Shown here piece by piece: positions 13,860-46,998 of a stretch of 61,990 nt of DNA. Both the position numbers and the translations under genes were made by a program. The notes beneath the pieces were generated by a model. That model saw nothing but the letters and a program-made list of their open reading frames with translations. It searched no databases and was not told the origin of the DNA. The stretch is from a virus (taxonomy: Duplodnaviria > Caudoviricetes), in the IMG/VR virus record IMGVR_UViG_3300042868_003570, positions 1 to 61,990 of that record; one strand, 5' to 3'. Every line of letters begins with the position of its first letter. The first letter of the stretch is position 1.

Positions 13860-16800
13860 ATGACGTATACCGTTGCTCTTCCAGATGGCCGCACTGTTGA
13901 ATTTCCAGACAGCGTACCAAAAGAAAGGGCAGCGGAACTGTTGCGGCAACAGTTTCCAGCACCAGAAGCCAAAGCCGCTGGTTTCTCGGTTAGCGACATC
14001 TTCACTTCTCTGGGGTTAGGAGCGCTTGGCGGCACTAAAGCCCTGACTGACGTTGCTGGTGCAGGCAACGTCGTTTCTGAAAAACTGGGACAAGCAAGCG
14101 AGTCCCTCCAGCAACGCCTGTCCCCTGAGCGACAAGCCGAAATCAGACGCCAGCAAGAACGCGCTGAGAAGGCCGCAACCAGCGGCAGCACACTTGAAGA
14201 GATTAAAGCTGGCGCACAAAGCGTTTTTGAAGCCCCGCTCCAGTCCACAGCGCAGGCACTGGGCTCCTTTGCCCCCATCCTTGCCACTCTGTTCCTTGGC
14301 CCCGGCGCTGCCGCGCTAGGTCTTGGCGCTAGGGCCACTGCCGTAGCCACCAACATTGCCAAAGCAGCGCCCGTTGCAATCGGTACCGCGCAGGGAGCCG
14401 GTGCAGTCAAAGGCGCTATCTACGAGGGCGTCTACAAAGCAGAGCGCAAAGACGGCGTATCTGAAGACGAGGCGAAGGAAAAAGCCACCGCAGCGCAGGA
14501 CTATTTTGGCCAGAACATCGACCAGATTCTGGTGGGCGCTGGCGCAGGTTATGTCTCAGGCAGGTTTGGTGCGGAGCGCCTGCTTACTCCCGGCGCTGCC
14601 GCTAAAGCTGAAGGCTCGATGCTGGGCCGTGTTGGCACGGCGTTGGCAACAGATGTGCCAACCGAAGCCTTTCAAGGCGGTCAGGAACAGTTTGCACAGA
14701 ACCTTGCGCTGCAGCGCGAAGGACGCGATGTACCCCTCTTCCAAGGGGTGGCTGCACAAGCCACGCAAGAAGGTCTCATGGGGGCACTGGGGTCAGGCCC
14801 CATCGCGGCTATACGCGGCCCCGGAGATGCCCGCCTGCGGGAAGAGCAAGATCGCCGAGCCGCAGAGTCCGCACAACTGCAAGCGCAAGCTGACGCCCAG
14901 CGTGCCGAGCAAGAGGCGTTTAAACAGACGCCTGAGTACCTTGATGACATTGAAAAACGGTTTGCGCAAATAAAAGCGCAGGAGAAGCAACTCAAAGACG
15001 CCGTTCCGGCAAGGGCTGACAAAGACGATCTGCTGGCTGTTGAAGAACGCCGCAGGGCAGTCGAGGCGCTCAATGAGTTTAAAAAGAGCGACGAGTACGT
15101 CAACACCATTGACGAGTACACGCAGGCGTACGACCAACTTCGCCCTCGCGCACAAGAGCGCAAAGCGGCAGAGGTTGAGAAGCAGCGTGTTGAGCGTGTG
15201 CAAGCTGCCCCTGAAGGAACTCAGCTTGACCTAGCAGGAGAACCGGGCGCGGCGCAGGACATGTCGCAGCAAGGGCAGGTCGAGTCTCTTAAACAATACA
15301 TTGCATCTTTCGACAAGCAGATCAAACAAGCGCAGGCGGCAGGCGACCGGAATCAAGTGCTGGCGTTGCAAAACAAGCAGTACGAGGCACAGCAGCAACT
15401 TGCCACTATCGCCATCTCTGAATCGCTGCCGGAGCAGATCAAGTCACTTTCGCAGGACTTTGGCGGTTTTACTGAAAAAATTAAGCAGGCTGCGGGCGAT
15501 GAGGAACAGGTGCGCAAGCTGCTGGTTGAGCAGTACAAGGTGCAGCAGCAGATCACATCGCTGTTGCCTGACGCGTCGATGCTGGACGAGGCTAAGGCGT
15601 TGGCCCAGCGCAATCTAGAAAATTACCAGACGCAAATTCAAACGCTTACAGAGCAGCCTAATAAAAAACCTGAGCAGTACCGCCAGCTTGAGCAGCTTAG
15701 CAACACCGCCAATCAGGTTCGACAGGCAATTGCGGGCATTGAGTCCACGCAAAAAACGGTTGAACAGTACGCGCCCGTCGAGAAGCAAAAAGCTATTGAC
15801 AAGCCGCGAGAGATAGCCAAACTCAATAAAAAACTGGAAGATCAAGCCGCGCTGGGTGAAGACATCGGCCCAACGCTGGAAAAACTCCGGGCGCTGGATA
15901 CCGTTGCAGAGCAGCCAGCCCTGTTCGGTGATGAAGACCTGCGGGATGTAGTTCCTCGTGACTTAGGCGACATCATGGCCGACGAACGCGAGCGTGTTAA
16001 AGCCTTGCGAGAAAAGCTTGACGCCGAGCGTGCCTCCTTGCAGCGCATGGCTGCGACACCGCAGACGCAGCTCACGGAAGAAGTGCAGCGCAGAAAGAAA
16101 GAGCTTACTGAAGAGGCGCGAAAGACGGCTCAAGAACTTCAGCAACGCAACAAAGACCTGTACGAGTTTGAGAAGAAGCAGACGCTGCTCGACAAGCTGC
16201 GTAAAGAAAAACGTACGCCGCTGGTTGCCCAAGGCATTGAGGCCATTCAGCAGCAGATCGCTGCGTTGCAGAAAAAACTACAAGCGCAAGAACCCAAGGT
16301 CCGCGTACAGCAGCCACGAACCAAGCTGCCTGAAGCCGCCCCTGAAGGGGAGTTTGCACCTCGCGTAACTGACGCTCAACTTACTGAGCAGCGCGACCGC
16401 GACATTGCGGCGCTGTTGGACAAGTTCTTGCCCGGTGCACTGGGCGTAACACCCACGCTAGAGGTACTGAAAGTGCAGGGGCCGGAGGGTCCGCGTGAAG
16501 TAAGACTGACCACGCTGGGTAGCACAAGCAGCAAAGCTTTGCGCCAAGAACTGGAAAACGTAAACCGCCGCCGTGATGACGCTGTTGTGGAGTTGTTTGA
16601 CTCTAGAGGCCCAACGGCTAACGCGTTGCGCAGCGAAATCGTCATGTTGGTCACGCGTGAGGTGGAGCTAAACCGTCAACTGAGCAAACTTGACCCGCTC
16701 AGTAATGAGTACCGAAAAGACTTGCAGTCGCTTGTTCGGCAGACGTTTACGCGCCCCAGCGCCATACCCAAAAACCGCACACCAAACCTTGCGGAACAGC

Positions 16801-19800
16801 AGTACCTTGACGCCGTTGACAACATGCAGCGCGTTGAAGACGCCACGCTGGACGACATTTATGCAATGAACAAGCTGGCGTATAACGCTAGGCAGCGTGG
16901 GGTTGTAGATATAACCGCTTTGGTGCAGAACAACCCCGTCATGCAAGCGGGGCGGGATGCTGAAGCGCGTTTGTCCGCCGCCCAAAAGCGTGTTGATGAA
17001 GCGGCTAAAAGAATGCCGCAACTGCCGGACCTCACTGAGCAGGCGCTTGAAGACAAGATTGACACGCTTGCGGCGGAGTTTTCTGAGGGCACACCCCAGC
17101 AACTCTCAACCGCAACTAAAGCACGGCGTGTGCCAGCCGCCGTGCGGCCCCCGGCTTTGTTGGGCGTGGACATCCCTGCACAAATTGCAGCCAATAACCG
17201 GCAGATTGAGCAGCTCAACAAAGACATTCAGTACGCGGGTAAACCGTCAGGTGCTGAGAAAGTGGCAGCGCTCAATAAGATGAAGGCGGAGCGTGACCAG
17301 CGCCGGGAAGAGAACCAACGGCTTGACGCACAACTGACAACAATACGCGGCAAACTAGGACAAGCCGCAGAGCCCGCAGCGCCCGCAGAAGAAATTGGTG
17401 AAGTTGCCGAGATGCGGCAAGAGCTTGCCACCATTGAGCGCACGCTTGCATCAGATAAAAAAGAACTTAAACAACTGCAAGAGCAGTTGCAAGAACAGCA
17501 GAAAAAAGAACAAACGCCCAAAATTCAAGAAGAAGTTGCCACTTTGGGGCGGCGGATAAAACAATTTGAGGCTAGAGCCAACATCACGCGTCAGCTTGAG
17601 GCTGCACGCGATGACCTTAAAGAACGGCTTCAGGCGCAGGGGGCAAAACCTGTAGAAACGCCTAGCACAGAAGAACAGTTGGGGTTTAGGACAGGCCCCG
17701 CGTCAAAATTTCAGTTAACAGAACTCAAACCTGTTACCGCAGAAATGACCAAAGCGCGTACCGCTATTGTTGCGGCTACGCAGCGCATTGAGGACATACA
17801 CAAAGCCGCAGGTCGTGTTAGCGACATGGGCGAGCAGTACTTCCGCGAAGTTGCAACGACGTACCAGCTACAACTGGACAAAGACAACAATGCGCTGAAC
17901 AACATTAAAGCCGCCATTGCACGCGTGTTGAAAGGACAGGAGGAAGCGCAGCTTGCCATCAACGCCGCACGTACACCTGAACAAAAGGCAACTGCGGTCA
18001 AAAACTTAGACGAGCTGCGGCAGCGAGAAGTCGACCTCAAAGATTTGCAAACGGTGCGCGAGCGCCGAAAAGCAGGGATGCGTGAAGCCATTGCCGAAGT
18101 GCAGCGGTTTCTGAATCTGTCGCGGTTGGCGGGCGTAAACAAAACCACCAGCCTGCGCGAAAGCCTTGCCCAAGCACTTGACCGCGCTTTGGCAGATAGG
18201 GAGAAAAAAGAAGCCGCGCTTGCAGAATTGCAGAAAAAGCAACGCATGTACGAGCAGCAAGAGGCTGCTAGGCGCGGGATCGACCTCGGCGAAGCTGAAG
18301 CTGAGAAGATTACTGCGGGTGAGGCTGAAGGGTTTGTGTCGGTGTCTGGTAAAGCACTGGGCGAGAAACCTAAAGCACAACGCAGCGGGGTCATCAGCAA
18401 AGACAGCAAAGTCAAGGTCATCAAACCTGACCAAAGCAAGAAGTTGGAAGAGGCTATTCAAACTGCTGCGGCTTTGGTTGGCGAAGCTCGGCGCGAGAAA
18501 GAGACCGCCAAGGAAGCATTGCAAGCGCAAACGCCTTCCGCAGAGCGCTTGGCTTCGCTTAAACAAGCACTCACAGCGCTTGAAAAGCAGGTCAACGCAC
18601 ATTACAACGCGACACAGATTGCAGAACTTCAAGCCGAGATTGGGCAGTTGCAAGCGCGGTTGGCGGCGCTTCCCGTTGCACCGGCAATTGCTGACGTAGC
18701 TGAGCAATACAACAAGGCCAGCACTGCCACAAAGGGTTTACCCGCACCAGAGCGCGTTGCGCAGTTGATGTTTGATAAAAGCAGCGCTGAACAAAAAGCC
18801 GCCGCGCAGTTCAAGGCCGCTGAGCAAGCCGTTGCTGCTGCCCAAGCCAAGTACGCCGCCGCCGGAAAAGCGCTGAGTCAGGCTGAGAAAAAAGTTGCGA
18901 AGACGCTACCTCAAGGGTTTAAGGTACGAAATCCGCAGAGACTTCAGGGCATCAAGCTGCAGATCAGCAATTTGCTTGCTTCCGCACCAAAACTGCGTGA
19001 TGACATTCAAAACGCTTTGTACGCGCAGAGCGAGGCAGAGAAGAACTACATGGCAGCTCGCCTTGAGCGGCTGCTGCTTAACCAGCAGATGGGCGAACAT
19101 GCCAAGCGTGATGCTGCCAGCATCACGGCACAGTTGGCAAGCGCTGCCGACGCCGTTGCAAACCTGCAGAAACAACTGAGCACCGCAACTGCCAATGAAG
19201 TTGCAATGCGAAGCAAGCTCGACAAGAGCAGCGCAGCGTTGGAAAAAGCCCTGGACGACGCAGAGATTGCACGGCAAGCCGCACGCAACGCAGAGCGTTT
19301 GGCGCAGGAGCAAGCGCAGACATCTGCACTGGATGCCGCCAAAGACGCGCAAGACCGCGCTGATGCTTTACGCACAGGGCTTGGGTTGCCCGGCAGGCGC
19401 GTCGAGCGCGACACCGCAGGCAAGGTGATGACGGCGGTTCAAGCTGACATTCGTCAGCGCATGGCTGCGGCAGAGACCAACCTGTCCAAAGCAATCAAGG
19501 CAGGCAACCCAGACGCTATCAGGAAGTACACCGCCGAAGTTGAAGCCACGACTAGAGAGCTGGCGCAGGTGTACAGCAAAGCCCCGCTTACTGTTTCCGA
19601 GGTCGGTGCTGCAGCGCAAGCACGCAAACGCTCCGCAGGGCTTACCGCTAAACAAAAAGAAAAAACGCTGGAGAGCGTACAAAAAGAACTGGACGAGGCG
19701 GTCATCGAATTGCGCGATGCAACTAATCGTAACGACACCGCAGCGATTAAAGCAGCGGACGCTAAAGTTGAAGAACTGATTACGCTGCGCGATGCGTACG

Positions 19801-22800
19801 CAGTTCAAACGGCAGCACAACCAGAAGTTGTCGAGGGTGTGCGCTCGACTTCACGCCGGGAAGGTCCGGCTGTTCGTTATGTTCGTGGCGGCAGCAAAGC
19901 CATCATGCAGGCTGGCGCGGTCAAGTTGCGTGCGGCAGGCATGTCGCAAGACGCGGCCAATGCGGTCAGTTTGTACGTGGCCAAGAGCAGAATCCGTGGC
20001 GCTAAAGACACGGCAAAAGTGGAAGAGCTGACGCAAGCCTTTGACGCGCTCACTGATGGCATGACCGAAGAGCAGATCAAAGCCGCAGTTGCAGAAGGCA
20101 AGCGCCTCATGGGCCTCGGCCCCACTGCTGAACTTATAGCCAAGCGTGTAACGTACCAAGAGGCGTTGGCAAACGTCAGTAAAGCAGAGCAGGACTTGCG
20201 CGAAGCCAAATCCAATGTGACCAAAGAACTTGCGCAAGATGCGTTGGATTTGGCAAAACAGCGCGTAGAGTCTGCTTCCAACTCGTACGACCAAGCCAAG
20301 GCGCTGTACGAAACGTCGCAAATCAGGACCGCCAAGAAAGCCGAGAAGGACGCGGTCGAGGCGCTGTTTGATGAGACAGAGATTGCGCAGGACACGAAAG
20401 GTGCCAAGCTCGGCAAGGGCGCAGGTCGTACCGCAGCGGCGATTGAGGGGAGCGTGTTCCGTACCACTGACACCGCTGGACCCGGCATGAAAGCGCAACG
20501 TGTCCGTGACGTAGCGCTTAAAGTTGCGTCTGAGTGGTCTGTTGTGCCGGACATTTTTGTTGTAGAAGACATTGACGGGTTGCCAGAGAACATCCGGGAG
20601 CAGGCAATAAAAGCAGGTGTTGCCGACAACATTCCGGGCGTGTACGACCCAGCAACCAAGACTGCTTATCTGGTTGCTAGCAACCTTAAAACAACTGAAG
20701 ATGTGTTGTTGACCCTTGCGCACGAGGTAGCCGGTCACTTTGGTTTGCGAGAAGTTTTGGGTAGTTCGTACGCACGCACTATGCAAAAGCTGTATGCGGG
20801 CAACAAACTTGTGCGTGACCGTGCCAACGAGAAGATGCAGGCGCAAAAGTTTCTTGACCAGAATACGGCGGTGGAAGAGGTGCTGGCGGATATGGCTGAG
20901 ACGGGGGCGTCACCACAAGAGCGCAATCTTTTGCAACGCGTGTATGACTTTGTCAAGCGCTGGCTCAAGGACACGTTTCCAAGCTTGAAAATTGACCGCG
21001 TTACTGACAACGATGTGCGGCAGGTTGTGGCCAACGCTCGGCGCTATGTGACCAACGCAGACAAGTCTTTGCTGGAAGGCGGCGCTGCTGCTACCAGCGG
21101 CGTGGTCTATCGCACAGCGCCCGAGTCCTCCATCGTTGGGCGTCCTGCCGGTACGCTGGCTACGCTGCACGGCAACTTCTTCGGTCTGGCGGGGCGTGTG
21201 CAGCTCGTTGACAGGCTGGCGGCGGCAGACAAGGCGTTTGTCGAGGGCCAGAAGGACGGGAAGCTGTCATCGCTGGAGGCGGAGAACGCGCAGTATTTCT
21301 TGCGTATGGGCGACATGACAACGCAAGCTGCGGGGCAGTTCATTACCAACGGGCCTGTGCGTATCATCAAAGACCGCATCGCTGATCGCGTGGAAGAGCG
21401 CTACGAGTCACAGAGCGGCGCAACACTTGTTCGCGTGACGGACTACATGGAGCGTGCAGGTCAAGAAGGGCTGGGCTCAGCGCAAGAGGTTGAGACGCTG
21501 CTCACCGTCAAGATTGCCGGTGATCGCGCCAACACCATCCCTCGTGGCTGGGAGCGCCTGTTCTCAGAGAACCCCGCAAAAGCCAAGGCCGAGTACGACG
21601 CCGCTGTTGCCAAGATCAACGCTAACCCTGCAGCCAAGAAGTTCATGGACGCAGCAGCCGTAGAGTACAAGGCGTACAACGACGGGCTGATGGATTTTGC
21701 CGAGCAGACCGGGTTCATCACGACAGAGGACGCTCGCCGCTTGAAGAAGACACCGTACGTGCCTTACTACCGAATTGATGGCGGCGTGGTCAAACTGTTT
21801 GTGGACCGTGAGACCCCGCTGGTCATTGGCAACATCAAAGACAACCCTGACTTGCAGCAACTGCTTGGCGACAACAAGCAGATCATGCCGCTGCTGACCA
21901 GCGCTGTGCAGAACACTTTCATGCTGACTCGCATGGGGCTGCGCAACAAGGCTACGCAAGAGACAGCGTCGGCACTGGAGAAGGCCGGGTTCGTGTCCAA
22001 GATGGGTGAAGGCATGGGGCTGGCCAACGTCGATACTGTGCACTACAAGTACAAGGGCAAGCCGTACTTTGCAACCATTGACGCAGATCAGTTTGGCATC
22101 CCCGCAGACCTGATCGTCAAGGGCATGGAGGGTATCAAGACAACGATCCCTGACATCGTGCGGTTGATGGGTGTACCGGCGAACTGGATTCGCACATTCG
22201 TGACGCGTTCCCCCGCGTACGTGCTGCGGCAGTTGATCCGTGACCCATTGAGCGCGGCTATTACCGGCGGTGTGGACGGCGTGCCTGTGCTCAACGCAAT
22301 GAAGCAGCTTGCCAAGATGAAAGCGGGCACAAACACTTCAGCCGACGCCTTGATGCGCGGCCTGACTGTGAGCAGCAACATCTACACCGGCAACGAGCAG
22401 GACATGCAAAAGTTCCTTGAGGCTGCGTCTGGTGGGCGCGGGAAGTGGAGCAAACTGATGGGCGTGTTTGACCAACTGGCGCTGGAGTCGGATGCGGCCA
22501 CGCGTACTGTTGTGTACGAGGACTCGTTGAAAAAGGGGTTGTCCGAGCGGCAAGCGCAGTTCCGCGCACTGGAGGTGCAGAACTTTGGACGCCGGGGCTT
22601 GTCGCCCAGCGTGCAGTACATGGCTACGCTGGTGCCGTTCTTTAACGCGCAGATTCAGGGTCTTGATGTGCTGTACCGCAGCTTCCGTGGCGACATGCCG
22701 TTCTCCGAGAAGCTGGAGATTCGCAAGAAGATTGTGTCTCGCGGCTTGCTGTTGACGGCTACCGCGCTGGGGTACGCGTTCATGATGCGTGACAACGAGG

Positions 22801-23678
22801 AGTACAAGAAGGCCACGCCTGAAGAGCGCTACAGCAACTTCTTTGTGCCAATTCCAGGCACCAAAGACATGTTCAAAATACCAATCCCCTACGAGGTTGG
22901 CCTGCTCTTCAAAGCGTTGCCCGAGGCGTTGCTCGACGCCATCATCGGCGACACCAAAGCCACGGAAGCTGCCAAGGGTATAGGCAAGTTGCTGTTGCAG
23001 TCGGCCCCCGGCGTGATCCCAGCGGCAGGCAAGCCGTTGATTGAGGCGGCTTATGGGCAGACGCTTATTGGGCCAATTGAATCCGAGCGCGAGAAGCGGC
23101 TTTTTGCGGGCCAGCGCTTTCGTGAAAACACACCGGAGGTGCTCAAGACTCTGGGCTCGTACACCGGCGCAATCGGTATCTCACCGCTGCTACTGGAACA
23201 CTTTGCTAGAGGCTACACCAGCACGCTTGGCGTGTCAGTGCTGCGGGCGCTGGACCCCATCATGGGCGAAGCCCTTGACAACAAGGCCACAACGCCCTTG
23301 AGCAAAACACCTTTTATTGGCGGCTTGTTCCAGACAGCCGATGGCAGGTTCCTGATCGAGCGTGCGTACAACCGCATGGAAGAAGTCACGCAGGCGGCTG
23401 ATAGTTACAAGGACTTGCAAAAGCGAGGCAAAAAAGCCGAGGCAGAAGCGTTTGCGCAGCGGCACGCGGACTTGCTTGCGGCATCGGACATGGCGGGTAC
23501 ATTTCGGCAGCGCTCTGGTCAGATGTTTGCAGACGAGCGAGCAGTACGTGCAGACCCAAGCCTGTCCCGCGAGCAGAAAGACGCGTTGCTCGCAAAAATC
23601 AAAGCAGCGCAGCAGATGGAGGCGAAGCAGTTCAGCGAAGCTTCCGATAAAACCACACGCCAAGCCGCCCGTCCCTGA
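13860..23678 (+). CDS. Giant virion/ejection polyvalent protein (3272 aa) with zincin-like metallopeptidase motif and LPD38-like C-terminus
   Basis: TLAHEVAGHFGLR and AVEEVLAD motifs; FKIPIPYEVGLLFKALPE C-terminal region; long coiled coil; hydrophobic N-terminal segment. Confidence 0.8.
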   Translation: MTYTVALPDGRTVEFPDSVPKERAAELLRQQFPAPEAKAAGFSVSDIFTSLGLGALGGTKALTDVAGAGNVVSEKLGQASESLQQRLSPERQAEIRRQQERAEKAATSGSTLEEIKAGAQSVFEAPLQSTAQALGSFAPILATLFLGPGAAALGLGARATAVATNIAKAAPVAIGTAQGAGAVKGAIYEGVYKAERKDGVSEDEAKEKATAAQDYFGQNIDQILVGAGAGYVSGRFGAERLLTPGAAAKAEGSMLGRVGTALATDVPTEAFQGGQEQFAQNLALQREGRDVPLFQGVAAQATQEGLMGALGSGPIAAIRGPGDARLREEQDRRAAESAQLQAQADAQRAEQEAFKQTPEYLDDIEKRFAQIKAQEKQLKDAVPARADKDDLLAVEERRRAVEALNEFKKSDEYVNTIDEYTQAYDQLRPRAQERKAAEVEKQRVERVQAAPEGTQLDLAGEPGAAQDMSQQGQVESLKQYIASFDKQIKQAQAAGDRNQVLALQNKQYEAQQQLATIAISESLPEQIKSLSQDFGGFTEKIKQAAGDEEQVRKLLVEQYKVQQQITSLLPDASMLDEAKALAQRNLENYQTQIQTLTEQPNKKPEQYRQLEQLSNTANQVRQAIAGIESTQKTVEQYAPVEKQKAIDKPREIAKLNKKLEDQAALGEDIGPTLEKLRALDTVAEQPALFGDEDLRDVVPRDLGDIMADERERVKALREKLDAERASLQRMAATPQTQLTEEVQRRKKELTEEARKTAQELQQRNKDLYEFEKKQTLLDKLRKEKRTPLVAQGIEAIQQQIAALQKKLQAQEPKVRVQQPRTKLPEAAPEGEFAPRVTDAQLTEQRDRDIAALLDKFLPGALGVTPTLEVLKVQGPEGPREVRLTTLGSTSSKALRQELENVNRRRDDAVVELFDSRGPTANALRSEIVMLVTREVELNRQLSKLDPLSNEYRKDLQSLVRQTFTRPSAIPKNRTPNLAEQQYLDAVDNMQRVEDATLDDIYAMNKLAYNARQRGVVDITALVQNNPVMQAGRDAEARLSAAQKRVDEAAKRMPQLPDLTEQALEDKIDTLAAEFSEGTPQQLSTATKARRVPAAVRPPALLGVDIPAQIAANNRQIEQLNKDIQYAGKPSGAEKVAALNKMKAERDQRREENQRLDAQLTTIRGKLGQAAEPAAPAEEIGEVAEMRQELATIERTLASDKKELKQLQEQLQEQQKKEQTPKIQEEVATLGRRIKQFEARANITRQLEAARDDLKERLQAQGAKPVETPSTEEQLGFRTGPASKFQLTELKPVTAEMTKARTAIVAATQRIEDIHKAAGRVSDMGEQYFREVATTYQLQLDKDNNALNNIKAAIARVLKGQEEAQLAINAARTPEQKATAVKNLDELRQREVDLKDLQTVRERRKAGMREAIAEVQRFLNLSRLAGVNKTTSLRESLAQALDRALADREKKEAALAELQKKQRMYEQQEAARRGIDLGEAEAEKITAGEAEGFVSVSGKALGEKPKAQRSGVISKDSKVKVIKPDQSKKLEEAIQTAAALVGEARREKETAKEALQAQTPSAERLASLKQALTALEKQVNAHYNATQIAELQAEIGQLQARLAALPVAPAIADVAEQYNKASTATKGLPAPERVAQLMFDKSSAEQKAAAQFKAAEQAVAAAQAKYAAAGKALSQAEKKVAKTLPQGFKVRNPQRLQGIKLQISNLLASAPKLRDDIQNALYAQSEAEKNYMAARLERLLLNQQMGEHAKRDAASITAQLASAADAVANLQKQLSTATANEVAMRSKLDKSSAALEKALDDAEIARQAARNAERLAQEQAQTSALDAAKDAQDRADALRTGLGLPGRRVERDTAGKVMTAVQADIRQRMAAAETNLSKAIKAGNPDAIRKYTAEVEATTRELAQVYSKAPLTVSEVGAAAQARKRSAGLTAKQKEKTLESVQKELDEAVIELRDATNRNDTAAIKAADAKVEELITLRDAYAVQTAAQPEVVEGVRSTSRREGPAVRYVRGGSKAIMQAGAVKLRAAGMSQDAANAVSLYVAKSRIRGAKDTAKVEELTQAFDALTDGMTEEQIKAAVAEGKRLMGLGPTAELIAKRVTYQEALANVSKAEQDLREAKSNVTKELAQDALDLAKQRVESASNSYDQAKALYETSQIRTAKKAEKDAVEALFDETEIAQDTKGAKLGKGAGRTAAAIEGSVFRTTDTAGPGMKAQRVRDVALKVASEWSVVPDIFVVEDIDGLPENIREQAIKAGVADNIPGVYDPATKTAYLVASNLKTTEDVLLTLAHEVAGHFGLREVLGSSYARTMQKLYAGNKLVRDRANEKMQAQKFLDQNTAVEEVLADMAETGASPQERNLLQRVYDFVKRWLKDTFPSLKIDRVTDNDVRQVVANARRYVTNADKSLLEGGAAATSGVVYRTAPESSIVGRPAGTLATLHGNFFGLAGRVQLVDRLAAADKAFVEGQKDGKLSSLEAENAQYFLRMGDMTTQAAGQFITNGPVRIIKDRIADRVEERYESQSGATLVRVTDYMERAGQEGLGSAQEVETLLTVKIAGDRANTIPRGWERLFSENPAKAKAEYDAAVAKINANPAAKKFMDAAAVEYKAYNDGLMDFAEQTGFITTEDARRLKKTPYVPYYRIDGGVVKLFVDRETPLVIGNIKDNPDLQQLLGDNKQIMPLLTSAVQNTFMLTRMGLRNKATQETASALEKAGFVSKMGEGMGLANVDTVHYKYKGKPYFATIDADQFGIPADLIVKGMEGIKTTIPDIVRLMGVPANWIRTFVTRSPAYVLRQLIRDPLSAAITGGVDGVPVLNAMKQLAKMKAGTNTSADALMRGLTVSSNIYTGNEQDMQKFLEAASGGRGKWSKLMGVFDQLALESDAATRTVVYEDSLKKGLSERQAQFRALEVQNFGRRGLSPSVQYMATLVPFFNAQIQGLDVLYRSFRGDMPFSEKLEIRKKIVSRGLLLTATALGYAFMMRDNEEYKKATPEERYSNFFVPIPGTKDMFKIPIPYEVGLLFKALPEALLDAIIGDTKATEAAKGIGKLLLQSAPGVIPAAGKPLIEAAYGQTLIGPIESEREKRLFAGQRFRENTPEVLKTLGSYTGAIGISPLLLEHFARGYTSTLGVSVLRALDPIMGEALDNKATTPLSKTPFIGGLFQTADGRFLIERAYNRMEEVTQAADSYKDLQKRGKKAEAEAFAQRHADLLAASDMAGTFRQRSGQMFADERAVRADPSLSREQKDALLAKIKAAQQMEAKQFSEASDKTTRQAARP

Positions 23679-28789: not shown

Positions 28790-30349
28790 TTAAGATTTAA
28801 TTTCTGCCTCGAACATGGCCGTGAGCAGGTCGTTGTCAGTGACGCGGGCCGTCAGCGCCTTGAACATCTTGCGCTCGATGGGGGAGCCTTGGATGTGCAG
28901 CACCGTCACCTTGTCGCTGTTCTGGCCCTTGCGGTCAGCCCGTGCAATGCACTGGATGTACTGCTCGACCGACATCAACGGGCCGTAGAAGACCACCGTG
29001 TCGGCAGCGGTTAGGGTAATCCCGTGTGCCGTTGCTTGCGGCTGCATGACAAGCAGCCGTGGGTCGGGCTGGGTCTGGAACCTGTGGATGATGTCAGCGC
29101 GTTTTGTCGCGCTCACACCGCCGTGGATGACCTCGGCCTTGATGCCCTTTTTGGTCAGGTGCGTGTGGATGGCGTCAATGGTGGAGCGAAACAGCGCGAA
29201 GACGATGACCTTGCGCTCGGTCTCCTCCAGTATCTCTTCGAGCACGCCCAAGCGCGGCGCTGAGTCGAACTCGACCACCGCCTTCTCGTCTGTGTAGGCC
29301 GCACCACAACTGATCTGCAGCAGCTTGCTGACGCCCGCAGCGGCGTTGACCGCAGTGATGGTCGTTCCGGCTGTGTGCACCAGCATCTGATCCTTGAGCA
29401 AGTTGTAGTACTTGGTCTGCTGCGGCGTGAGCGGCACCTCGCGCACCAGCGTCATGACAGGCGGCAGGTCAAGGCACTGCTCCTTGGTGAACCTGATGGC
29501 GGGCTGCAACGCGTTGAACACATCGTCCTTGGCCGTGGGCTTAGGCCCCCACTTGAACATGGTGAGCTTCATCATCACCAGATCACGCCATGCTGTGAAG
29601 AACTGCGGCACGCCTTGTGGGTTGACCAGCTTGGCCAGACCATACGCATCAGCAGGCGACTGCGAAGCAGGTGTGCCCGTCATCATCCACAGGTACGTGT
29701 CAGGCTTGATGATGGCCTTGAGCGTCTTCCACCGCCTAGTGGTCATGGTCTTGTAGGCGTTGGCCTCATCGACGATCACAAGGTCGAACCTGCCGTCTGC
29801 GTTGATCTCATCTGCGATCAGGTTGAGCCCGTCGTAGTTGCAGATCACAAACTCGTAGTCCGACTGAATCATCTCGATGCGCTTGGCAGACTGCGCATGG
29901 TGCGCGACGATGGCCGAGCGATGAATGATTGAGTTGTTGAGATCACTCATCCACGCTGCGTGCATGATCGACAGTGGGCACAGTATCAGCACACGGCGCA
30001 CAAGCCCACGGTTCATCAGGTAGTCAGCCGCCCACAGCGCTGCAAGCGTCTTGCCAGTGCCGGGGTCGTTAAAGACGAAGGCTTTGCGGTTGACGGTGAG
30101 GAACGATGCAGTATCGACTTGGTGCGCCATAGGCTTGTAGCGCCCCGGCCAGTTGTAGCGCCGCGTGATGGGCGAGGGCACATCTTTGACGCCGAGGTTG
30201 CGCAGCACCCGCACCTCTTCGAGCCCCCAGTACACCGCGATTTTGTACGTGTCACCCTCGCGCTCAAGTATCTTGTGCTTGGGGATTAGGTTGTATCTTT
30301 GCGGGTTACGCGTTCGAAAGACGAGCGCCTTGTCTTCAACTATCTCCAT
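28790..30349 (-). CDS. SNF2-family helicase
   Basis: DPGTGKT, VIVDEA, MTGTP, HGITLT, QCIARADRKGQ. Confidence 0.92.
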   Translation of the reverse strand: MEIVEDKALVFRTRNPQRYNLIPKHKILEREGDTYKIAVYWGLEEVRVLRNLGVKDVPSPITRRYNWPGRYKPMAHQVDTASFLTVNRKAFVFNDPGTGKTLAALWAADYLMNRGLVRRVLILCPLSIMHAAWMSDLNNSIIHRSAIVAHHAQSAKRIEMIQSDYEFVICNYDGLNLIADEINADGRFDLVIVDEANAYKTMTTRRWKTLKAIIKPDTYLWMMTGTPASQSPADAYGLAKLVNPQGVPQFFTAWRDLVMMKLTMFKWGPKPTAKDDVFNALQPAIRFTKEQCLDLPPVMTLVREVPLTPQQTKYYNLLKDQMLVHTAGTTITAVNAAAGVSKLLQISCGAAYTDEKAVVEFDSAPRLGVLEEILEETERKVIVFALFRSTIDAIHTHLTKKGIKAEVIHGGVSATKRADIIHRFQTQPDPRLLVMQPQATAHGITLTAADTVVFYGPLMSVEQYIQCIARADRKGQNSDKVTVLHIQGSPIERKMFKALTARVTDNDLLTAMFEAEIKS

Positions 30350-30367
30350 TTACTTCCTCCTTGTGTT

Positions 30368-40553: not shown

Positions 40554-40722
40554 GTGCGTACCTCTCGAACAGATGCCCGAAGGCGTTGACCAACAGCACT
40601 TGGTTGGTGCTGTCTGCACGGAAGAATGCCAGTGCTATCGCAGAGGCAAAGCCTCCGCCTTCGCGCTCCATCCTGCGTGCTGCTATCAACAGCTCGTCTT
40701 CACTCATATCGTTTGCTTTCAT
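40546..40722 (-). CDS. Small protein (58 aa, ...GGGFASAIALAFFRADSTN...)
   Basis: AAGGAGAAACCAAATG start; below the ORF track size cut-off. Confidence 0.7.
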   Translation of the reverse strand: MKANDMSEDELLIAARRMEREGGGFASAIALAFFRADSTNQVLLVNAFGHLFERYAHE

Positions 40723-41006
40723 TTGGTTTCTCCTTTGGTTGACTTACGTTTGGGTGCGACCTCGTCCAGCACGAAGCTGCCCTCGACCTGCGGTTGGTAG
40801 AAGCTGATTTCGTAGCTTGCGGACTTGTCACCCGGCACATACCACACCCAATAGAGCATGGGCTTTTTGTTGTAGCGCAGCTTGTCCATCGTCTGCATCA
40901 GGGCGTGTAAGTCCGTGCCTGAGCGCCACTCGAACACGTTGACGAGCAGGTAGTGGAACTCGGGCTGGGTGTGCTTCATTAAGCGTTCTGTCATGTCGAT
41001 CTTCAT
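40719..41006 (-). CDS. Hypothetical protein
   Basis: AAGGAG RBS before ATG 41006. Confidence 0.65.
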   Translation of the reverse strand: MKIDMTERLMKHTQPEFHYLLVNVFEWRSGTDLHALMQTMDKLRYNKKPMLYWVWYVPGDKSASYEISFYQPQVEGSFVLDEVAPKRKSTKGETK

Positions 41007-41299
41007 TTGTGTAGCTCCTTTGGTTGAAGTGCGCAGTACCAGCGATTGACGCCGATGCGTCGAGACACGACTTTCAGGCGTGGGGTTTGTTTTTGGTTGT
41101 GCACGTATGCCACCAGACACTTAACCAGCACAGACTCTGCGCCACCGCTGGGCGTTTTGCGTAGCTGGTCACTCTCGATAACCACAAAACCCTGCGCTTT
41201 TATCGTCTCGCAGAGTGCGGCCCAGTCGTACACAACCTTGGTCGGCACCGTGGTAGGTTCCGCAGTCCATCCGTTATGGTGTATGTCTTCAACCTTCAT
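41003..41299 (-). CDS. Hypothetical protein
   Basis: AAGGAGAAAGCAAATG start. Confidence 0.7.
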   Translation of the reverse strand: MKVEDIHHNGWTAEPTTVPTKVVYDWAALCETIKAQGFVVIESDQLRKTPSGGAESVLVKCLVAYVHNQKQTPRLKVVSRRIGVNRWYCALQPKELHK

Positions 41300-41315
41300 T
41301 TGCTTTCTCCTTTGG

Positions 41316-41860: not shown

Positions 41861-42124
41861 TTATCCTTCCAGCTTTTCTTCGTTGATGAACATCTGGCCA
41901 AACTGCTCCCACAGGGGGATGTACCCGCTGTCTTCGACGGGCTCATCTTCAGCAAGCTCAAACATTTCACGGTACTCACGCTCACATTCTTTGGTGTGCT
42001 CATCGACTACAGCCTGCGCTGCTTCGCGGGTGCGGTATGCCCCATAGAAAGATGCGCTGGCTTGGTAGTACGGGTCGTCGCAGATGTAGAGTTTGGTGAC
42101 GATGTAAACGATGGTTGACTTCAT
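41861..42124 (-). CDS. Acidic hypothetical protein
   Basis: AAGGAGAAAGCAAATG start; YGAYRTREAA motif. Confidence 0.7.
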   Translation of the reverse strand: MKSTIVYIVTKLYICDDPYYQASASFYGAYRTREAAQAVVDEHTKECEREYREMFELAEDEPVEDSGYIPLWEQFGQMFINEEKLEG

Positions 42125-42190
42125 TTGCTTTCTCCTTTTTACAAGTGCCGCACATTTGTCATGGCTGTGCGGCATGGCCATATTTGAAAA

Positions 42191-42229
42191 CTGGGGTGAA
42201 CTTTCACCCCAGAGAGATATCTCTCTGGG
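42191..42229. repeat. Two fused palindromes: CTGGGGTGAACTTTCACCCCAG and CCCAGAGAGATATCTCTCTGGG
   Basis: Directly visible; both have additional copies in 43557-44440. Confidence 0.85.
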
Positions 42230-43404: not shown

Positions 43405-43609
43405 GTGTCCCACGCAGAGCAGCCATCGCCTGCTGGCCCACGAACCAGCCCTCAAGGGCGTTGACGGATGCCAGCACGGTCTCCTCGCCAGTGCTGGCGA
43501 CAACGCGCCAGATGCAGAACTCGGGCCGCGTCTCGCCAAGGGGCAGCTCCTCGTAAAGAGAGAATTCTCTCTGGCCGATTTGAACAGTGCCGGTGTGCTT
43601 AGTTGTCAT
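43391..43609 (-). CDS. Early hypothetical protein
   Basis: GAGGAGAAACTTCCATG start. Confidence 0.65.
   Translation of the reverse strand: MTTKHTGTVQIGQREFSLYEELPLGETRPEFCIWRVVASTGEETVLASVNALEGWFVGQQAMAALRGTHDRR
43557..43572. repeat. Palindrome AGAGAGAATTCTCTCT
   Basis: Perfect 16-bp palindrome, intragenic copy. Confidence 0.85.
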
Positions 43610-43626
43610 GGAAGTTTCTCCTCTGA

Positions 43627-43652
43627 AACTGGGGTGAAAGTTAACCCCAGTT
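43627..43652. repeat. Palindrome AACTGGGGTGAAAGTTAACCCCAGTT
   Basis: 21/22 match to the reverse complement of 42191-42212. Confidence 0.8.
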
Positions 43653-43708
43653 GGTTCGGGCAAGATCGCCCCCACAACCCACGCTACGCATGGGCTGGGA
43701 GAGTTGAC

Positions 43709-43888
43709 TTACTGCCAGACGACAGTGCCTACGCCAGAAGCGCCGAAGTGCTCGACGGTGTGGTTCTTGCCAAGGCCGTTGGCTAGCTCGATGGCGAGCG
43801 TTCGGGCACGTTGCCAATCTCTGCCCTCGCGCTCGTAGGGGAAGACGCGGATTTTGATTGCTTTATGGAAGACTGCGTAGCAAAACAT
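43709..43888 (-). CDS. Early hypothetical protein
   Basis: AGGA RBS before ATG 43888. Confidence 0.6.
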   Translation of the reverse strand: MFCYAVFHKAIKIRVFPYEREGRDWQRARTLAIELANGLGKNHTVEHFGASGVGTVVWQ

Positions 43889-43962
43889 GTTGATTGTTCC
43901 TGTTGGTGGAAAACTGTTAGACATGGGATGCAACAGCGGGCCGGACAGACCCGCTGTGATCG

Positions 43963-43978
43963 AGAGAGATTTCTCTCT
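43963..43978. repeat. Near-palindrome AGAGAGATTTCTCTCT
   Basis: 15/16 match to the consensus, intergenic. Confidence 0.8.
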
Positions 43979-43981
43979 GAG

Positions 43982-44404
43982 TTACTTGGCAACAGCTTCG
44001 AGAGCAGCGATGGCAGCGGCCAAGCTGTCGAACTGCTCAAGGTAAGCCTTGGCTGCTGCCCTGTGCTGCTTGCTGATGCGAGCGTGGGCCTTGGGCTGAG
44101 CCACCACCGCTTTCACAGGGCGCACCACGCAGTACCTGAAGTCACTGCTGGCCCTGTCAATCGCCTGTACGTGCTCAATCTTTGCGCCATCGCCTTTGCC
44201 CCTAGAGAGAATTCTCTCTGGGACACCCTTGATGGCCTTGCACTCTACCTGCCCTTCAAGATAACCCAGCATCCACCTACGGCGAAGGTCTGACTGCTGC
44301 TCGGCAGTAGCGCCGACATAAGCCACATGAAAGGCATCGGCGCCGTTGCGCATCTCATGCCGTGTGCGGCCCACACGGGCTGCATATTGTTGAATCGAGA
44401 TCAT
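43982..44404 (-). CDS. First gene of the early arm, hypothetical
   Basis: AGGAGCAACTTCCATG start. Confidence 0.7.
   Translation of the reverse strand: MISIQQYAARVGRTRHEMRNGADAFHVAYVGATAEQQSDLRRRWMLGYLEGQVECKAIKGVPERILSRGKGDGAKIEHVQAIDRASSDFRYCVVRPVKAVVAQPKAHARISKQHRAAAKAYLEQFDSLAAAIAALEAVAK
44204..44219. repeat. Palindrome AGAGAGAATTCTCTCT
   Basis: Perfect, intragenic. Confidence 0.85.
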
Positions 44405-44424
44405 GGAAGTTGCTCCTACGAACG

Positions 44425-44440
44425 AGAGAGAATTCTCTCT
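44425..44440. repeat. Palindrome AGAGAGAATTCTCTCT
   Basis: Perfect, just upstream of the RBS of the first early gene. Confidence 0.85.
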
Positions 44441-44719
44441 GGGTTGATGACCACTACACGTATGTGCAGTGGGTTGATCGGGCTGCTGTTGCTGCTCCGA
44501 TATCTCTATTTGACTTATGGGGGGTTTGGGGAAGGTCATGGCAGACCCCCTTCTTCGACCCCCACCGTACCCCCACCCACCATATATAGGCATGACGGGA
44601 CGCTGCCACACGAACACTGTTTCACACCTACCCCCACAACTTCCGTAACACTTAGCTACTACTTCCCTAATACCTTTTACATACCCCCCTAAATTTTTAT
44701 AAAAATTACAGACAATCTG

Positions 44720-44735
44720 TGTCTAACGCTAGACA
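44720..44735. promoter_or_regulatory. Operator-like site TGTCTAACGCTAGACA (copy 3)
   Basis: 14/16 match to the reverse complement of copies 1 and 2. Confidence 0.6.
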
Positions 44736-44744
44736 ACATCAGGC

Positions 44745-44776
44745 AAAAAAATGCCCCCGGTTGCAACCGGGGGCAT
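44745..44776 (-). terminator. Intrinsic terminator of the sRNA
   Basis: ATGCCCCCGG-TTGCAA-CCGGGGGCAT running into a T7 tract on the minus strand. Confidence 0.85.
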
Positions 44777-44828
44777 AAAGGAAACTTCCATTCCCAAGGA
44801 GAAAGCAAATGTCTTGCGACAACTGCTG
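44745..44828 (-). ncRNA. Candidate anti-Shine-Dalgarno small RNA (about 85 nt)
   Basis: Promoter TTGCTT-N17-TACACT, GUC-GCAA-GAC hairpin, CAUUUGCUUUCUCCUU seed complementary to early RBSs, intrinsic terminator. Confidence 0.7.
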
Positions 44829-44843
44829 CACTAAGTGTATAGT
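44814..44843 (+). promoter_or_regulatory. Putative late promoter TTGCGA-N18-TATAGT
   Basis: Upstream of terS; overlaps the -10 of the divergent sRNA promoter. Confidence 0.55.
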
Positions 44844-44862
44844 CCGCAGCATCGGTAAGCAA
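44834..44862 (-). promoter_or_regulatory. Sigma70-like promoter TTGCTT-N17-TACACT
   Basis: -35 at 44862-44857, -10 at 44839-44834. Confidence 0.7.
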
Positions 44863-44885
44863 GGGCTTCGCGCCTAAACCCGCAC

Positions 44886-45494
44886 ATGCTTGAACACTTG
44901 TTGGATTTTGAACCAGACGTTCTCACAGAGGATGGGCAAGCACGCGCTGTCGAAAAGCACAGCGCCGCGCAAGTGATAGACGCGCAGGTCTCGACCGCAG
45001 ACTTTCTTGCGTCTTTAGGATGCCCCGACACCAACGCCGCTGTCTCAGCGCTGGAGCAGCAGGCCGCACGCACCGCCTTTAACGCGGTCGTCACGCACGA
45101 GGACAGCACCCACCACAAACTCGCCCAGATACAAACGCCTGCAGCCGTGCGCCATCTTGTAGGGATGCTGACCGCCTATGACTGGGAGTTTGTGCAGCAA
45201 GCCAAGGAGCTGCGCGGCTATACGGTGGCCAAGTTGGTGGAGGAATCTCAGAACCCCAACGCCAATATAAGGCTCAAAGCGCTGGGCCTGCTGGGCAAGG
45301 TCACAGAGGTGGGGCTCTTTACTGACAAGATCGAGGTCAAAAAGACAGACCTCACGGAAGACGAGATCGACAAAAAGCTTAAAGAAAAGCTGGCCAAGTT
45401 CATGGGCGTGACGGATGTTGCGCACGAAGACATTGAAGATGTGATCCCTCTTGGGGAAAACCCTAATGACGAACAGCCCGACACTGACGCCTGA
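44886..45494 (+). CDS. terS: Terminase small subunit (probable)
   Basis: Directly upstream of TerL; RLKALGLLGK...GLF motif. Confidence 0.7.
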   Translation: MLEHLLDFEPDVLTEDGQARAVEKHSAAQVIDAQVSTADFLASLGCPDTNAAVSALEQQAARTAFNAVVTHEDSTHHKLAQIQTPAAVRHLVGMLTAYDWEFVQQAKELRGYTVAKLVEESQNPNANIRLKALGLLGKVTEVGLFTDKIEVKKTDLTEDEIDKKLKEKLAKFMGVTDVAHEDIEDVIPLGENPNDEQPDTDA

Positions 45495-46998
45495 GCAGGC
45501 CAAAGCGATGCTCATGCACATGGGCAAGCTGTCCTTGGAGGAAAAGCTCGAAGCGCTGGAGCTGCTCGATAAGGCCGAGGATCAGAAAAAGCGCACGCTG
45601 GCAAGAACTGACATGATCGAGTTTGCCAAGTCCGTGTACCCTGGCTTTAAGGTGGGGCCGCATCACAAAAAACTGGCGCGTATATTCGGTGATGTGATCT
45701 CGGGCAAGAAAAAGCGCGTCATCATCAACATCGCCCCGCGTATGGGCAAGTCCGAGTTCAGCTCGTACCTGTTCCCGTCTTTCTTTCTAGGTAGTTTCCC
45801 GGAGAAAAAGATCATCATGGCCACGCACACCGCAGGCTTGTCCGAGGACTTTGGACGCCGGGTCAGGAACTTGATCGACAGCGAGGACTACAAAGACCTG
45901 TTTGCCACCAAAATAGCCGATGACCAAAAAGCTGCGGGCAAGTGGAGCACTTCTGCTGGTGGGCAGTACTACGCGGCAGGTGTCGGTGGCGCTCTTGCCG
46001 GTCGTGGCGCTGATCTATTCGTTATCGACGATCCTCACTCGGAGCAAGACGTAAAGGCCAACAGCCGCTTGGCGTTTGATACAGCGTGGTCGTGGTTCCA
46101 GACCGGCCCGCTGCAGCGCTTGATGCCTGGGGGCGCGATCATTATCATCATGACGCGCTGGGGCAAGCTCGACCTTACAGGACGCTTGCTGGACTACCAG
46201 ACCAAGAACCCCGAGGCCGATCCGTGGGAGGTGGTGGAGCTGCCTGCCATACTGCACGAGGACACGGCCAACGAGAAAAGCCTGTGGCCCGAGCAGTGGC
46301 CGCTGGAGTCGCTCAAGCAAAAGAAAATGTCGCTGGACCCGCAGTACTGGAACGCGCAGTACATGCAAAACCCAGTATCTAATACTGCGGCCATCGTCAG
46401 CCGCAAGTCTTGGCGCATATGGCTTGCGGAAGAGCCGCCCCGCTGCGACTACATCATCCAGTCGTGGGACACGGCCTTTGAAGCCAAAACCAGCGCCGAC
46501 TATTCGGCGTGCACCACCTGGGGCGTGTTCTACAACGAGGAAGAAAACGACGCCGCTCAGATTATCTTGCTCGACGCGTTCAAAGACCGGATGCAGTTCC
46601 CGGAGTTAAAGGCCGCAGCGCTCAAGCACTATAAAGAGTGGGAGCCCGATGCGTTCATTGTGGAGAAAAAGGCCGCTGGCGCTCCGCTGATACAAGAACT
46701 CAGGCGCATGGGCATACCCGTGCAAGAGACCAACCCCAGCCGGGGCAACGACAAGATCGTGCGCCTGAACGCGGTTGCTGATTTATTTGCATCAAGTACA
46801 GTGTGGGCTCCAGATACTCGCTGGGCACGCGAGGTCATTGAGGAAGTTGCATCCTTTCCCAACGGCGAGAATGACGACTTCGTGGACACGACCTCCCAAG
46901 CACTACTCAGGTTCAGGCAAGGCGGGTTCATCTCGCTGGCAACGGACGAGCAAGATGCACCACGATTTTTTCGACGCCGCAGCGCGGCGTACTACTAA
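45466..46998 (+). CDS. terL: Terminase large subunit
   Basis: APRMGKS Walker A, VIDDP Walker B, MTRW, QSWDTA, IVEKKAAG, FPNGENDDFVDT. Confidence 0.96.
   Translation: MTNSPTLTPEQAKAMLMHMGKLSLEEKLEALELLDKAEDQKKRTLARTDMIEFAKSVYPGFKVGPHHKKLARIFGDVISGKKKRVIINIAPRMGKSEFSSYLFPSFFLGSFPEKKIIMATHTAGLSEDFGRRVRNLIDSEDYKDLFATKIADDQKAAGKWSTSAGGQYYAAGVGGALAGRGADLFVIDDPHSEQDVKANSRLAFDTAWSWFQTGPLQRLMPGGAIIIIMTRWGKLDLTGRLLDYQTKNPEADPWEVVELPAILHEDTANEKSLWPEQWPLESLKQKKMSLDPQYWNAQYMQNPVSNTAAIVSRKSWRIWLAEEPPRCDYIIQSWDTAFEAKTSADYSACTTWGVFYNEEENDAAQIILLDAFKDRMQFPELKAAALKHYKEWEPDAFIVEKKAAGAPLIQELRRMGIPVQETNPSRGNDKIVRLNAVADLFASSTVWAPDTRWAREVIEEVASFPNGENDDFVDTTSQALLRFRQGGFISLATDEQDAPRFFRRRSAAYY

Follow-up and report, generated by a model that had tools for sequence, protein, structure and literature searches.

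Does a small RNA (sRNA) encoded by an uncultured phage carry a second seed that addresses its own class of gene starts? The question arises in the window, by which we mean the whole stretch of 61,990 nucleotides (nt) analysed here, the record IMGVR_UViG_3300042868_003570 of an uncultured virus, which is complete or near-complete (98%). On its minus strand, at 44745..44827, lies a predicted sRNA of ~83 nt, and an initial annotation had proposed that the RNA segment 44791-44781 is the second seed of a tandem two-seed sRNA, complementary to the start regions of the early genes with ATG codons at 43609 and 44404. Comparison across related phages supports well that this sRNA, a predicted transcript, exists as a conserved family in uncultured aquatic phages. 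The segment 44791-44781 is, in our estimate with a probability of about 0.6, structural, forming the loop and 3′ arm of an internal hairpin (stem-loop 2), and its match to a stock start region of the phage family is incidental. The initial annotation is therefore partly supported: the sRNA and the two classes of start region are real, and a functional second seed is unlikely.

To describe the RNA, we placed its 5′ end from its promoter and its 3′ end from its terminator. The 83-nt molecule (44827 to 44745) has a minimum free energy of -37.2 kcal/mol (z -5.37) and folds, in order, into stem-loop 1, eight unpaired bases (UUCUCCUU), stem-loop 2 and the terminator. Stem-loop 1 (44804..44827, minus strand) takes the UUUGC of a conserved motif into its 3′ arm. 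Stem-loop 2 (GGGAAU / GGAA / GUUUCC; 44780..44795, minus strand) holds the entire claimed second seed, and the intrinsic terminator (44744..44776, minus strand) consists of a hairpin at 44776..44751, with an 11-bp stem and a 4-nt loop, followed by a run of U. The many G-U pairs agree with the minus strand being the RNA strand.

We next compared this unit with relatives of the phage. At least 598 viral-metagenome stretches encode relatives of its large terminase, and 80 of these (loci L003-L082) formed the comparison set, with up to 3-4 kb of early region compared in each. A simple pattern recovered the sRNA unit in 64 of 81 sources, amounting to 49 distinct sequences. A covariance model built from seven close sequences gave 70 matches at E<=0.01 in the 81 sources; the expected site accounts for 67, one each in 66 of the 80 loci and in the window; the window holds a single match (81.6 bits, E 9.9e-19). 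The three extra matches are weak (22-22.6 bits, E 0.003-0.004), lie on the minus strand at L017:7476-7553, L015:7189-7267 and L016:3514-3592, and stand downstream of the terminase gene, where they may reflect chance or a second terminator-bearing element.

The homologues preserve pairing while changing sequence. In the model alignment, 94.2% of cells are paired, against 74.0% in shuffles (0/500 as high), and 17 of 23 base pairs are altered on both sides. The covariation score was 0.467, where shuffles gave 0.153 and slid controls 0.03-0.14. Pairing in helix 1 stands at 95.0%, with 4 of its 9 pairs altered on both sides, helix 2 is 91.1% paired with compensatory changes in 4/4 pairs, and helix 3, the terminator, has 9 of 10 pairs altered on both sides. 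The second hairpin, between a CU-rich stretch and the terminator, folds in 46 of the 49 distinct homologues, three being without it. The RNA also has a conserved unpaired seed: in 42 sequences the columns GCTT..C(T)CC are invariant or nearly so, and they are single-stranded in the folds. A plain MAFFT alignment of 42 homologues left the hairpins unaligned, and RNAalifold drew from it a meaningless 4-pair structure; single-sequence folds and the covariance model were used instead. Comparison lends good support to the annotated minus-strand sRNA that stops at the 44776..44751 terminator, with a conserved promoter, three covarying helices and a conserved single-stranded motif.

The putative sRNA promoter, P_left, comprises a -35 box TTGCTT (44857..44862, minus strand), assigned from sequence and conservation, and, 17 nt from it, a -10 box TACACT (44834..44839, minus strand). 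On the strand of the sRNA, 50/50 distinct upstream stretches carry a consensus match to TTGNNN-N17/18-TAnnnT; among the 50 relatives the -10 box reads TACACT in 33 and TATACT in 15, and the spacer is 17 nt in 47. A consensus scan placed a rightward structural-operon promoter (TTGCGA, 18 nt, TATAGT) on the plus strand at 44814..44843, and the same pattern stands in 50/50 relatives. Across 44814-44862 the -10 hexamers of these opposite-strand promoters overlap by 2 bp and each -35 lies within the region transcribed from the other, an arrangement common to 50/50 relatives. Because the divergent promoters overlap, RNA polymerase binding should be mutually exclusive. We propose that the sRNA would be transcribed from this sigma-70-type promoter of its own, which has its -10 region in common with the divergent promoter of the structural genes. 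Bidirectional promoters, in which two divergent promoters overlap at their -10 elements, are a known arrangement; the sRNA and structural promoters resemble them in lying on opposite strands with a 2-bp overlap of the -10s, and differ in that their presumed starts are ~23 bp apart. In one metatranscriptome run (0.05 of sampled words), five short contigs matched segments within 45165-46678 with 85-99% likeness, and no contig covered the sRNA or the early genes, a result uninformative either way.

We then turned to the claimed second seed. The plus-strand letters are GAAACTTCCAT at 44781-44791, ATGGAAGTTTC at 43608-43618 and ATGGAAGTT at 44403-44411, from which it follows that minus-strand RNA 44791-44781 is perfectly complementary to both minus-strand mRNAs, over 11 nt at the first site and 9 nt at the second, exactly as annotated. 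The 9-mer AACTTCCAT occurs exactly three times in the 61,990-b record, in the sRNA segment and the two targets only; with one mismatch allowed, it has 8 matches where 8.93 are expected. The 11-nt target lies in GGAGAAACTTCCATG (43607..43621, minus strand), the start region of a 72-aa gene, in which a Shine-Dalgarno sequence, a spacer and the ATG at 43609 follow one another and which is kept in relatives. The 9-nt target lies in GGAGCAACTTCCATG (44402..44416, minus strand), a start region of the same build in front of a 140-aa gene with its ATG at 44404.

That these two genes share an unusual start region was confirmed, and the phage family as a whole uses this sequence as a stock motif. Among the 52 loci with at least 1.2 kb of early region, ACTTCCATG occurs in the early-sense strand of 24, the window among them, and precedes different coding sequences; the full 11-mer target is present in 21 of the 52, often in two or three copies per locus. 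This reuse of ACTTCCATG identifies GGAGAAACTTCCATG as a stock translation start region of the family. Since both sites belong to one family-wide motif, the two targets are not independent events.

The fold and the homologues both speak for a structural role. The claimed seed occupies sRNA positions 37-47, wholly within stem-loop 2 (positions 33-48), with only the four loop bases predicted to be free. The pairing of stem-loop 2 is kept across homologues while its sequence varies freely, a pattern that suggests selection as a helix and not as a sequence. The seed is absent from the 46 other distinct stem-loop-2 sequences, though the target motif is present in 24/52 loci. When each stem-loop 2 was set against the early region of its own genome, the longest matches were 6-9 nt in all loci but the window (11 nt), and matches of at least 9 nt were found in 5 of 52 loci, against ~7.9 expected from the cross-genome rate of 0.151. 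In L004, whose terminase is 91% identical, the 43609 start region is letter-for-letter the same and stem-loop 2 is unrelated. A stem-loop 2 of the window's type recurs only in L126, a truncated stretch 98.2% identical to the window and without an early region.

How often would such a match arise by chance? Gene starts were called by a simple ad hoc rule, giving 232 candidate start regions. The best duplex energy of stem-loop 2 against these, -17.5 kcal/mol, was equalled by 119 of 300 shuffles. For the 43609 gene, a hybrid of -13.7 kcal/mol is offset by +3.60 for opening the sRNA site and +4.43 for opening the target, leaving a net ~-5.7 kcal/mol; for the 44404 gene the corresponding values are -9.9, +2.91 and +1.77, a net ~-5.2 kcal/mol.

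Several observations weigh against the structural reading. A contiguous Watson-Crick match of at least 11 nt between the 16-nt stem-loop 2 and the 232 start regions arose in only 10 of 2000 mononucleotide shuffles, and in 26 of 1821 pairings of a natural stem-loop-2 region with the early region of another genome. The real sequence places the 43609 and 44404 genes first and second among the 232 (-17.5 and -16.9 kcal/mol). Stem-loop 2 is weak, and at an opening cost of only 3.6 kcal/mol pairing is possible. In L003, the closest relative with an early region, AUGGAAG persists within a predicted loop of 7 nt, giving 8 nt complementary to that locus's own start region, and a match to a start region is in keeping with the theme of the sRNA's conserved part. 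Finally, the alignment behind the covariation counts was fitted to the model, and this fitting favours the structure that was modelled. The ranking above shuffled controls that the initial annotation had named as its own refutation test therefore gave a split answer, failing on energy and holding on contiguous length.

The shuffle count for contiguous matches, the two top ranks and the loop in L003 also speak for a lineage-specific second seed. Under that explanation, in this phage and those closest to it, the loop and 3′ arm of stem-loop 2 would pair with the GGAGAAACUUCCAUG starts of the 43609 and 44404 genes and block ribosome binding, one sRNA thereby serving both stock start classes. The 11-nt and 9-nt perfect matches do reach the first two bases of the start codons, and PMC5688073 describes Burkholderia double-hairpin RNAs with two CU-rich regions per sRNA that bind the ribosome-binding site (RBS). 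Set against this are the sequestration of the segment in a predicted helix, a net energy of only ~-5 to -6 kcal/mol, a duplex energy no better than that of shuffles, and the absence of the segment from the 46 other distinct stem-loop-2 sequences. The chance rates above, taken with ~49 distinct homologues, predict roughly one 11-nt case in the family, and the one such locus among 52 is about what the cross-genome rate of 0.014 predicts. We consider a functional second seed unlikely and retain stem-loop 2 as a structural element. The initial annotation had also invoked the second seed to make chance an improbable explanation for the first, an argument that is unnecessary, as the first stands on its own conservation.

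That conservation centers on the stretch upstream of stem-loop 2. At 44793..44811 on the minus strand, invariant columns and folds mark a conserved antisense copy of the stock start region CCCAAGGAGAAAGCAAATG, of which only ~44796-44803 (UUCUCCUU) is predicted to be single-stranded; this copy is probably the first seed of the initial annotation. The conserved single-stranded seed, UUCUCCU, belongs to this copy, which is antisense over 13-19 nt to a second of the family's stock start regions. The 13-mer AGGAGAAAGCAAA occurs exactly at the minus-strand gene starts 37184, 41299 and 42124, and near-exactly at several more. Over 57 loci, GGAGAAAGCA was found 34 times in the early sense and twice in the late sense. 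The 19-mer CCCAAGGAGAAAGCAAATG is exact in 45 viral-contig stretches, comprising 14 sRNA genes and 31 ordinary gene starts; all 31 open frames of at least 54 codons, and 19 have a stop codon no more than 5 nt before. In four contigs the 19-mer is present within the sRNA gene and, on the opposite strand, also at the start of a gene.

The start regions themselves are unusually stereotyped, the exact 19-mer standing at 31 unrelated gene starts (viral contigs L083-L127). With 1-3 mismatches it also stands at four gene starts of the window, 41297-41315, 42122-42140, 40720-40738 and 30347-30365.

The 43609 start region has AGGAGAAA (8 nt) in common with the second motif, so the conserved CU-rich stretch can already pair there, overlapping the site of the claimed second seed, which is a further point against that seed. 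The 44404 region, AGGAGCAA, has only AGGAG in common with the second motif. Own-genome and cross-genome complementarity of the conserved seed region were alike (mean 9.68 and 9.56 nt, no enrichment, with <=3 kb of early region each), which points to shared conservation of seed and start region and not to genome-specific co-evolution. A start variant one U shorter, GGAGAAGCA, is found in early regions only where the sRNA has it (11 vs 0); 19 long-form sites stand in those loci too, the loci are not independent, and we draw nothing from this.

Two further explanations for the match in stem-loop 2 were weighed. In the first, the family's stereotyped start regions would be short stretches of common sequence through which recombination or gene conversion takes place; a patch of the GGAGAAACTTCCATG type would have entered the sRNA gene in inverted form and been kept, since the helix still forms, with no regulatory role. 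The plus strand of the sRNA gene does resemble two tandem start regions, AGGAAACTTCCAT then CCCAAGGAGAAAGCAAATG, and both the 31 unrelated gene starts and the four contigs with copies on opposite strands would fit such exchange. The identity, however, ends exactly at 11 nt, with three mismatches directly 5′ and no ATG; the neighbours L003 and L004 differ here stepwise, by point changes and indels, and show no replaced block; and nothing among these results shows recombination. We regard it as quite improbable.

In the second, the plus strand is the functional one: its start-like sequences would serve a small open reading frame (ORF) of 22 codons (ATG 44809-44811), and the complementarity would merely reflect shared ribosome-binding signals. 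The 19-mer, which includes this ATG, is identical to real gene starts, and an ATG stands at that spacing in most homologues. Yet the frame measures 22, 27 or 120 codons in close relatives, its long form being of low complexity, and ~20 of 57 homologues are without the ATG. The minus strand is the one that suits the promoter, the terminator and the helices with their G-U pairs, and the sole plus-strand promoter of the scan is downstream of ATG 44809-44811. A plus-strand small protein was rejected on the unstable frame length and the missing ATG, and the explanation as a whole is very improbable.

We therefore return to the reading in which stem-loop 2 is structural, and outline how such an RNA might work. 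The transcript would fold into stem-loop 1, the short single-stranded CU-rich UUCUCCU, stem-loop 2 and an intrinsic terminator. Its likeliest contact with mRNA would be the CU-rich stretch with its flanks, which is antisense over 13-19 nt to the stock start (CCCA)AGGAGAAAGCAAATG; at the 43609 start region it is antisense to the 8 nt AGGAGAAA. Genes with stock start regions may be translationally repressed through this stretch. In the lineage of the window, stem-loop 2 would happen to complement GGAGAAACTTCCATG, a stock start reused before many early genes, and because the target is a repeated motif, one match yields two apparent targets.

Comparison with known RNAs places this molecule near, and outside, described families. 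In Rfam no family reached its gathering score with the sRNA. Below-threshold matches on the correct strand pointed towards similarly built Burkholderia sRNAs: ncS54 (RF02871) at 29.1 bits against a gathering score of 43, the Betaproteobacteria toxic sRNA (RF02278) at 23.8 against 50, and suhB/mmgR at 24.1 against 41; by score the sRNA is a member of neither RF02871 nor RF02278. According to PMC5688073, unpaired CU-rich regions of Burkholderia double-hairpin RNAs cover the RBS of predicted targets, and in ncS03 both CU-rich regions take part in one duplex. Like ncS54 and the RF02278 or double-hairpin RNAs, the phage sRNA is short, with an unpaired CU-rich stretch complementary to the RBS, an internal hairpin and an intrinsic terminator. 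Unlike RF02278 and RF02871, it is phage-encoded, has an extra 5′ stem-loop and possesses a conserved stretch that extends to an antisense copy, 13-19 nt long, of a stock start region belonging to the phage itself. Phage-encoded sRNAs are known in the literature; in the portions of it consulted this RNA did not turn up, with no search aimed at this phage family.

Phage systems offer two further comparisons. The c4 antisense RNA of phages P1 and P7 is phage-encoded, acts in trans and pairs at the ribosome-binding region of a phage gene; it is processed from a transcript that also carries its target, and it controls one operon. The sRNA described here differs in being a separate promoter-to-terminator unit upstream of a putative early promoter, with a complement that recurs at many gene starts. 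In phage T4, two proteins, the repressor RegA and the endonuclease RegB, act on the translation start regions of early mRNAs and so shut these off. Were the sRNA to repress its complements, it would be like RegA and RegB in that a phage factor reads a sequence common to many early starts, and unlike them in that the recognising agent would be RNA. By this analogy one could imagine a master key, in which the CU-rich core and its flanks shut off early translation in uncultured aquatic podophages and the lineage of the window has gained a second key, stem-loop 2, for GGAGAAACUUCCAUG; we hold this combined picture to be speculative and doubtful.

The sRNA and its flanks lie in or beside a divergent control region (44440-44885). 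Minus-strand genes run from ~44404 down to 23789, among them those for a DNA polymerase, helicases and a primase-helicase. The genes on the plus strand start at 44886 and include the large terminase (45451-46998), a portal, tail proteins and a 3272-aa protein. The ORF of the latter (13860-23678) has only a C-terminal LPD38 domain (large polyvalent protein; 1.4e-28) and no PHROG match. By large terminase, the closest cultured phages are Phage DSL-LC04 (53%) and the Pelagibacter phages HTVC027P and HTVC023P (~50%), and cultured phage records gave no DNA-level match to the window. Pfam and PHROGs assigned no family to the early small proteins, those of both target genes included. Upstream of the 140-aa gene its frame continues without a stop as far as a GTG at 44617 (44405-44617), through G-rich and C-rich tracts; the short form is favoured because the Shine-Dalgarno sequence and ATG at 44404 are conserved in relatives. 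The first rightward gene (ATG 44886) is without a Shine-Dalgarno sequence at the normal distance, and at 44850-44888 a small hairpin lies between an upstream AAGG and this ATG, its stem covarying in relatives, by eye, as GGGC..GCCT and GGGG..CCCC.

Other signals crowd the early control region. Just past the sRNA terminator, a palindrome GTCTAAnnTTAGAC (44721-44734) and an AT box TTTTTATAAAAATT (44694-44707) are conserved in most relatives. A leftward TAGACA-17 nt-TTATAA (44697..44734, minus strand), picked by eye and not in the consensus scan, is downstream of the sRNA terminator and on its sequence is likely an early promoter, with its -35 inside the operator-like palindrome GTCTAAnnTTAGAC. 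A second palindrome, GAGAGAATTCTCTC, has five perfect or near-perfect copies in 2.3 kb of early region (42212-42225, 43558-43571, 43964-43977, 44205-44218 and 44426-44439) against 0.11 expected, and exact copies also stand in the early regions of seven relatives. Two of the copies fall within reading frames and do not share a frame, suggesting a signal at the level of DNA or RNA; GAGAGAATTCTCTC may act as an operator or mark a processing site. Two small GC hairpins stand shortly upstream of the 43609 start region, at 43627-43650 and 43658-43672 (minus strand GGGCGATCTTGCCC, and CTGGGG..CCCAG then TTTCAG), which are conserved in L004, L005, L012 and L038 and may be an attenuator or a processing site.

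Taken together, these results describe a well-supported new sRNA family in most sampled members of a large environmental phage group. A second seed would matter for this one lineage only and is probably incidental. The two stock forms of start region in these genomes bear on gene annotation and on the exchange of early-gene modules. The conserved core of the sRNA, antisense to a start region reused near letter-for-letter before many early genes, offers a concrete example in which a lytic-type phage may use RNA to time its own translation.

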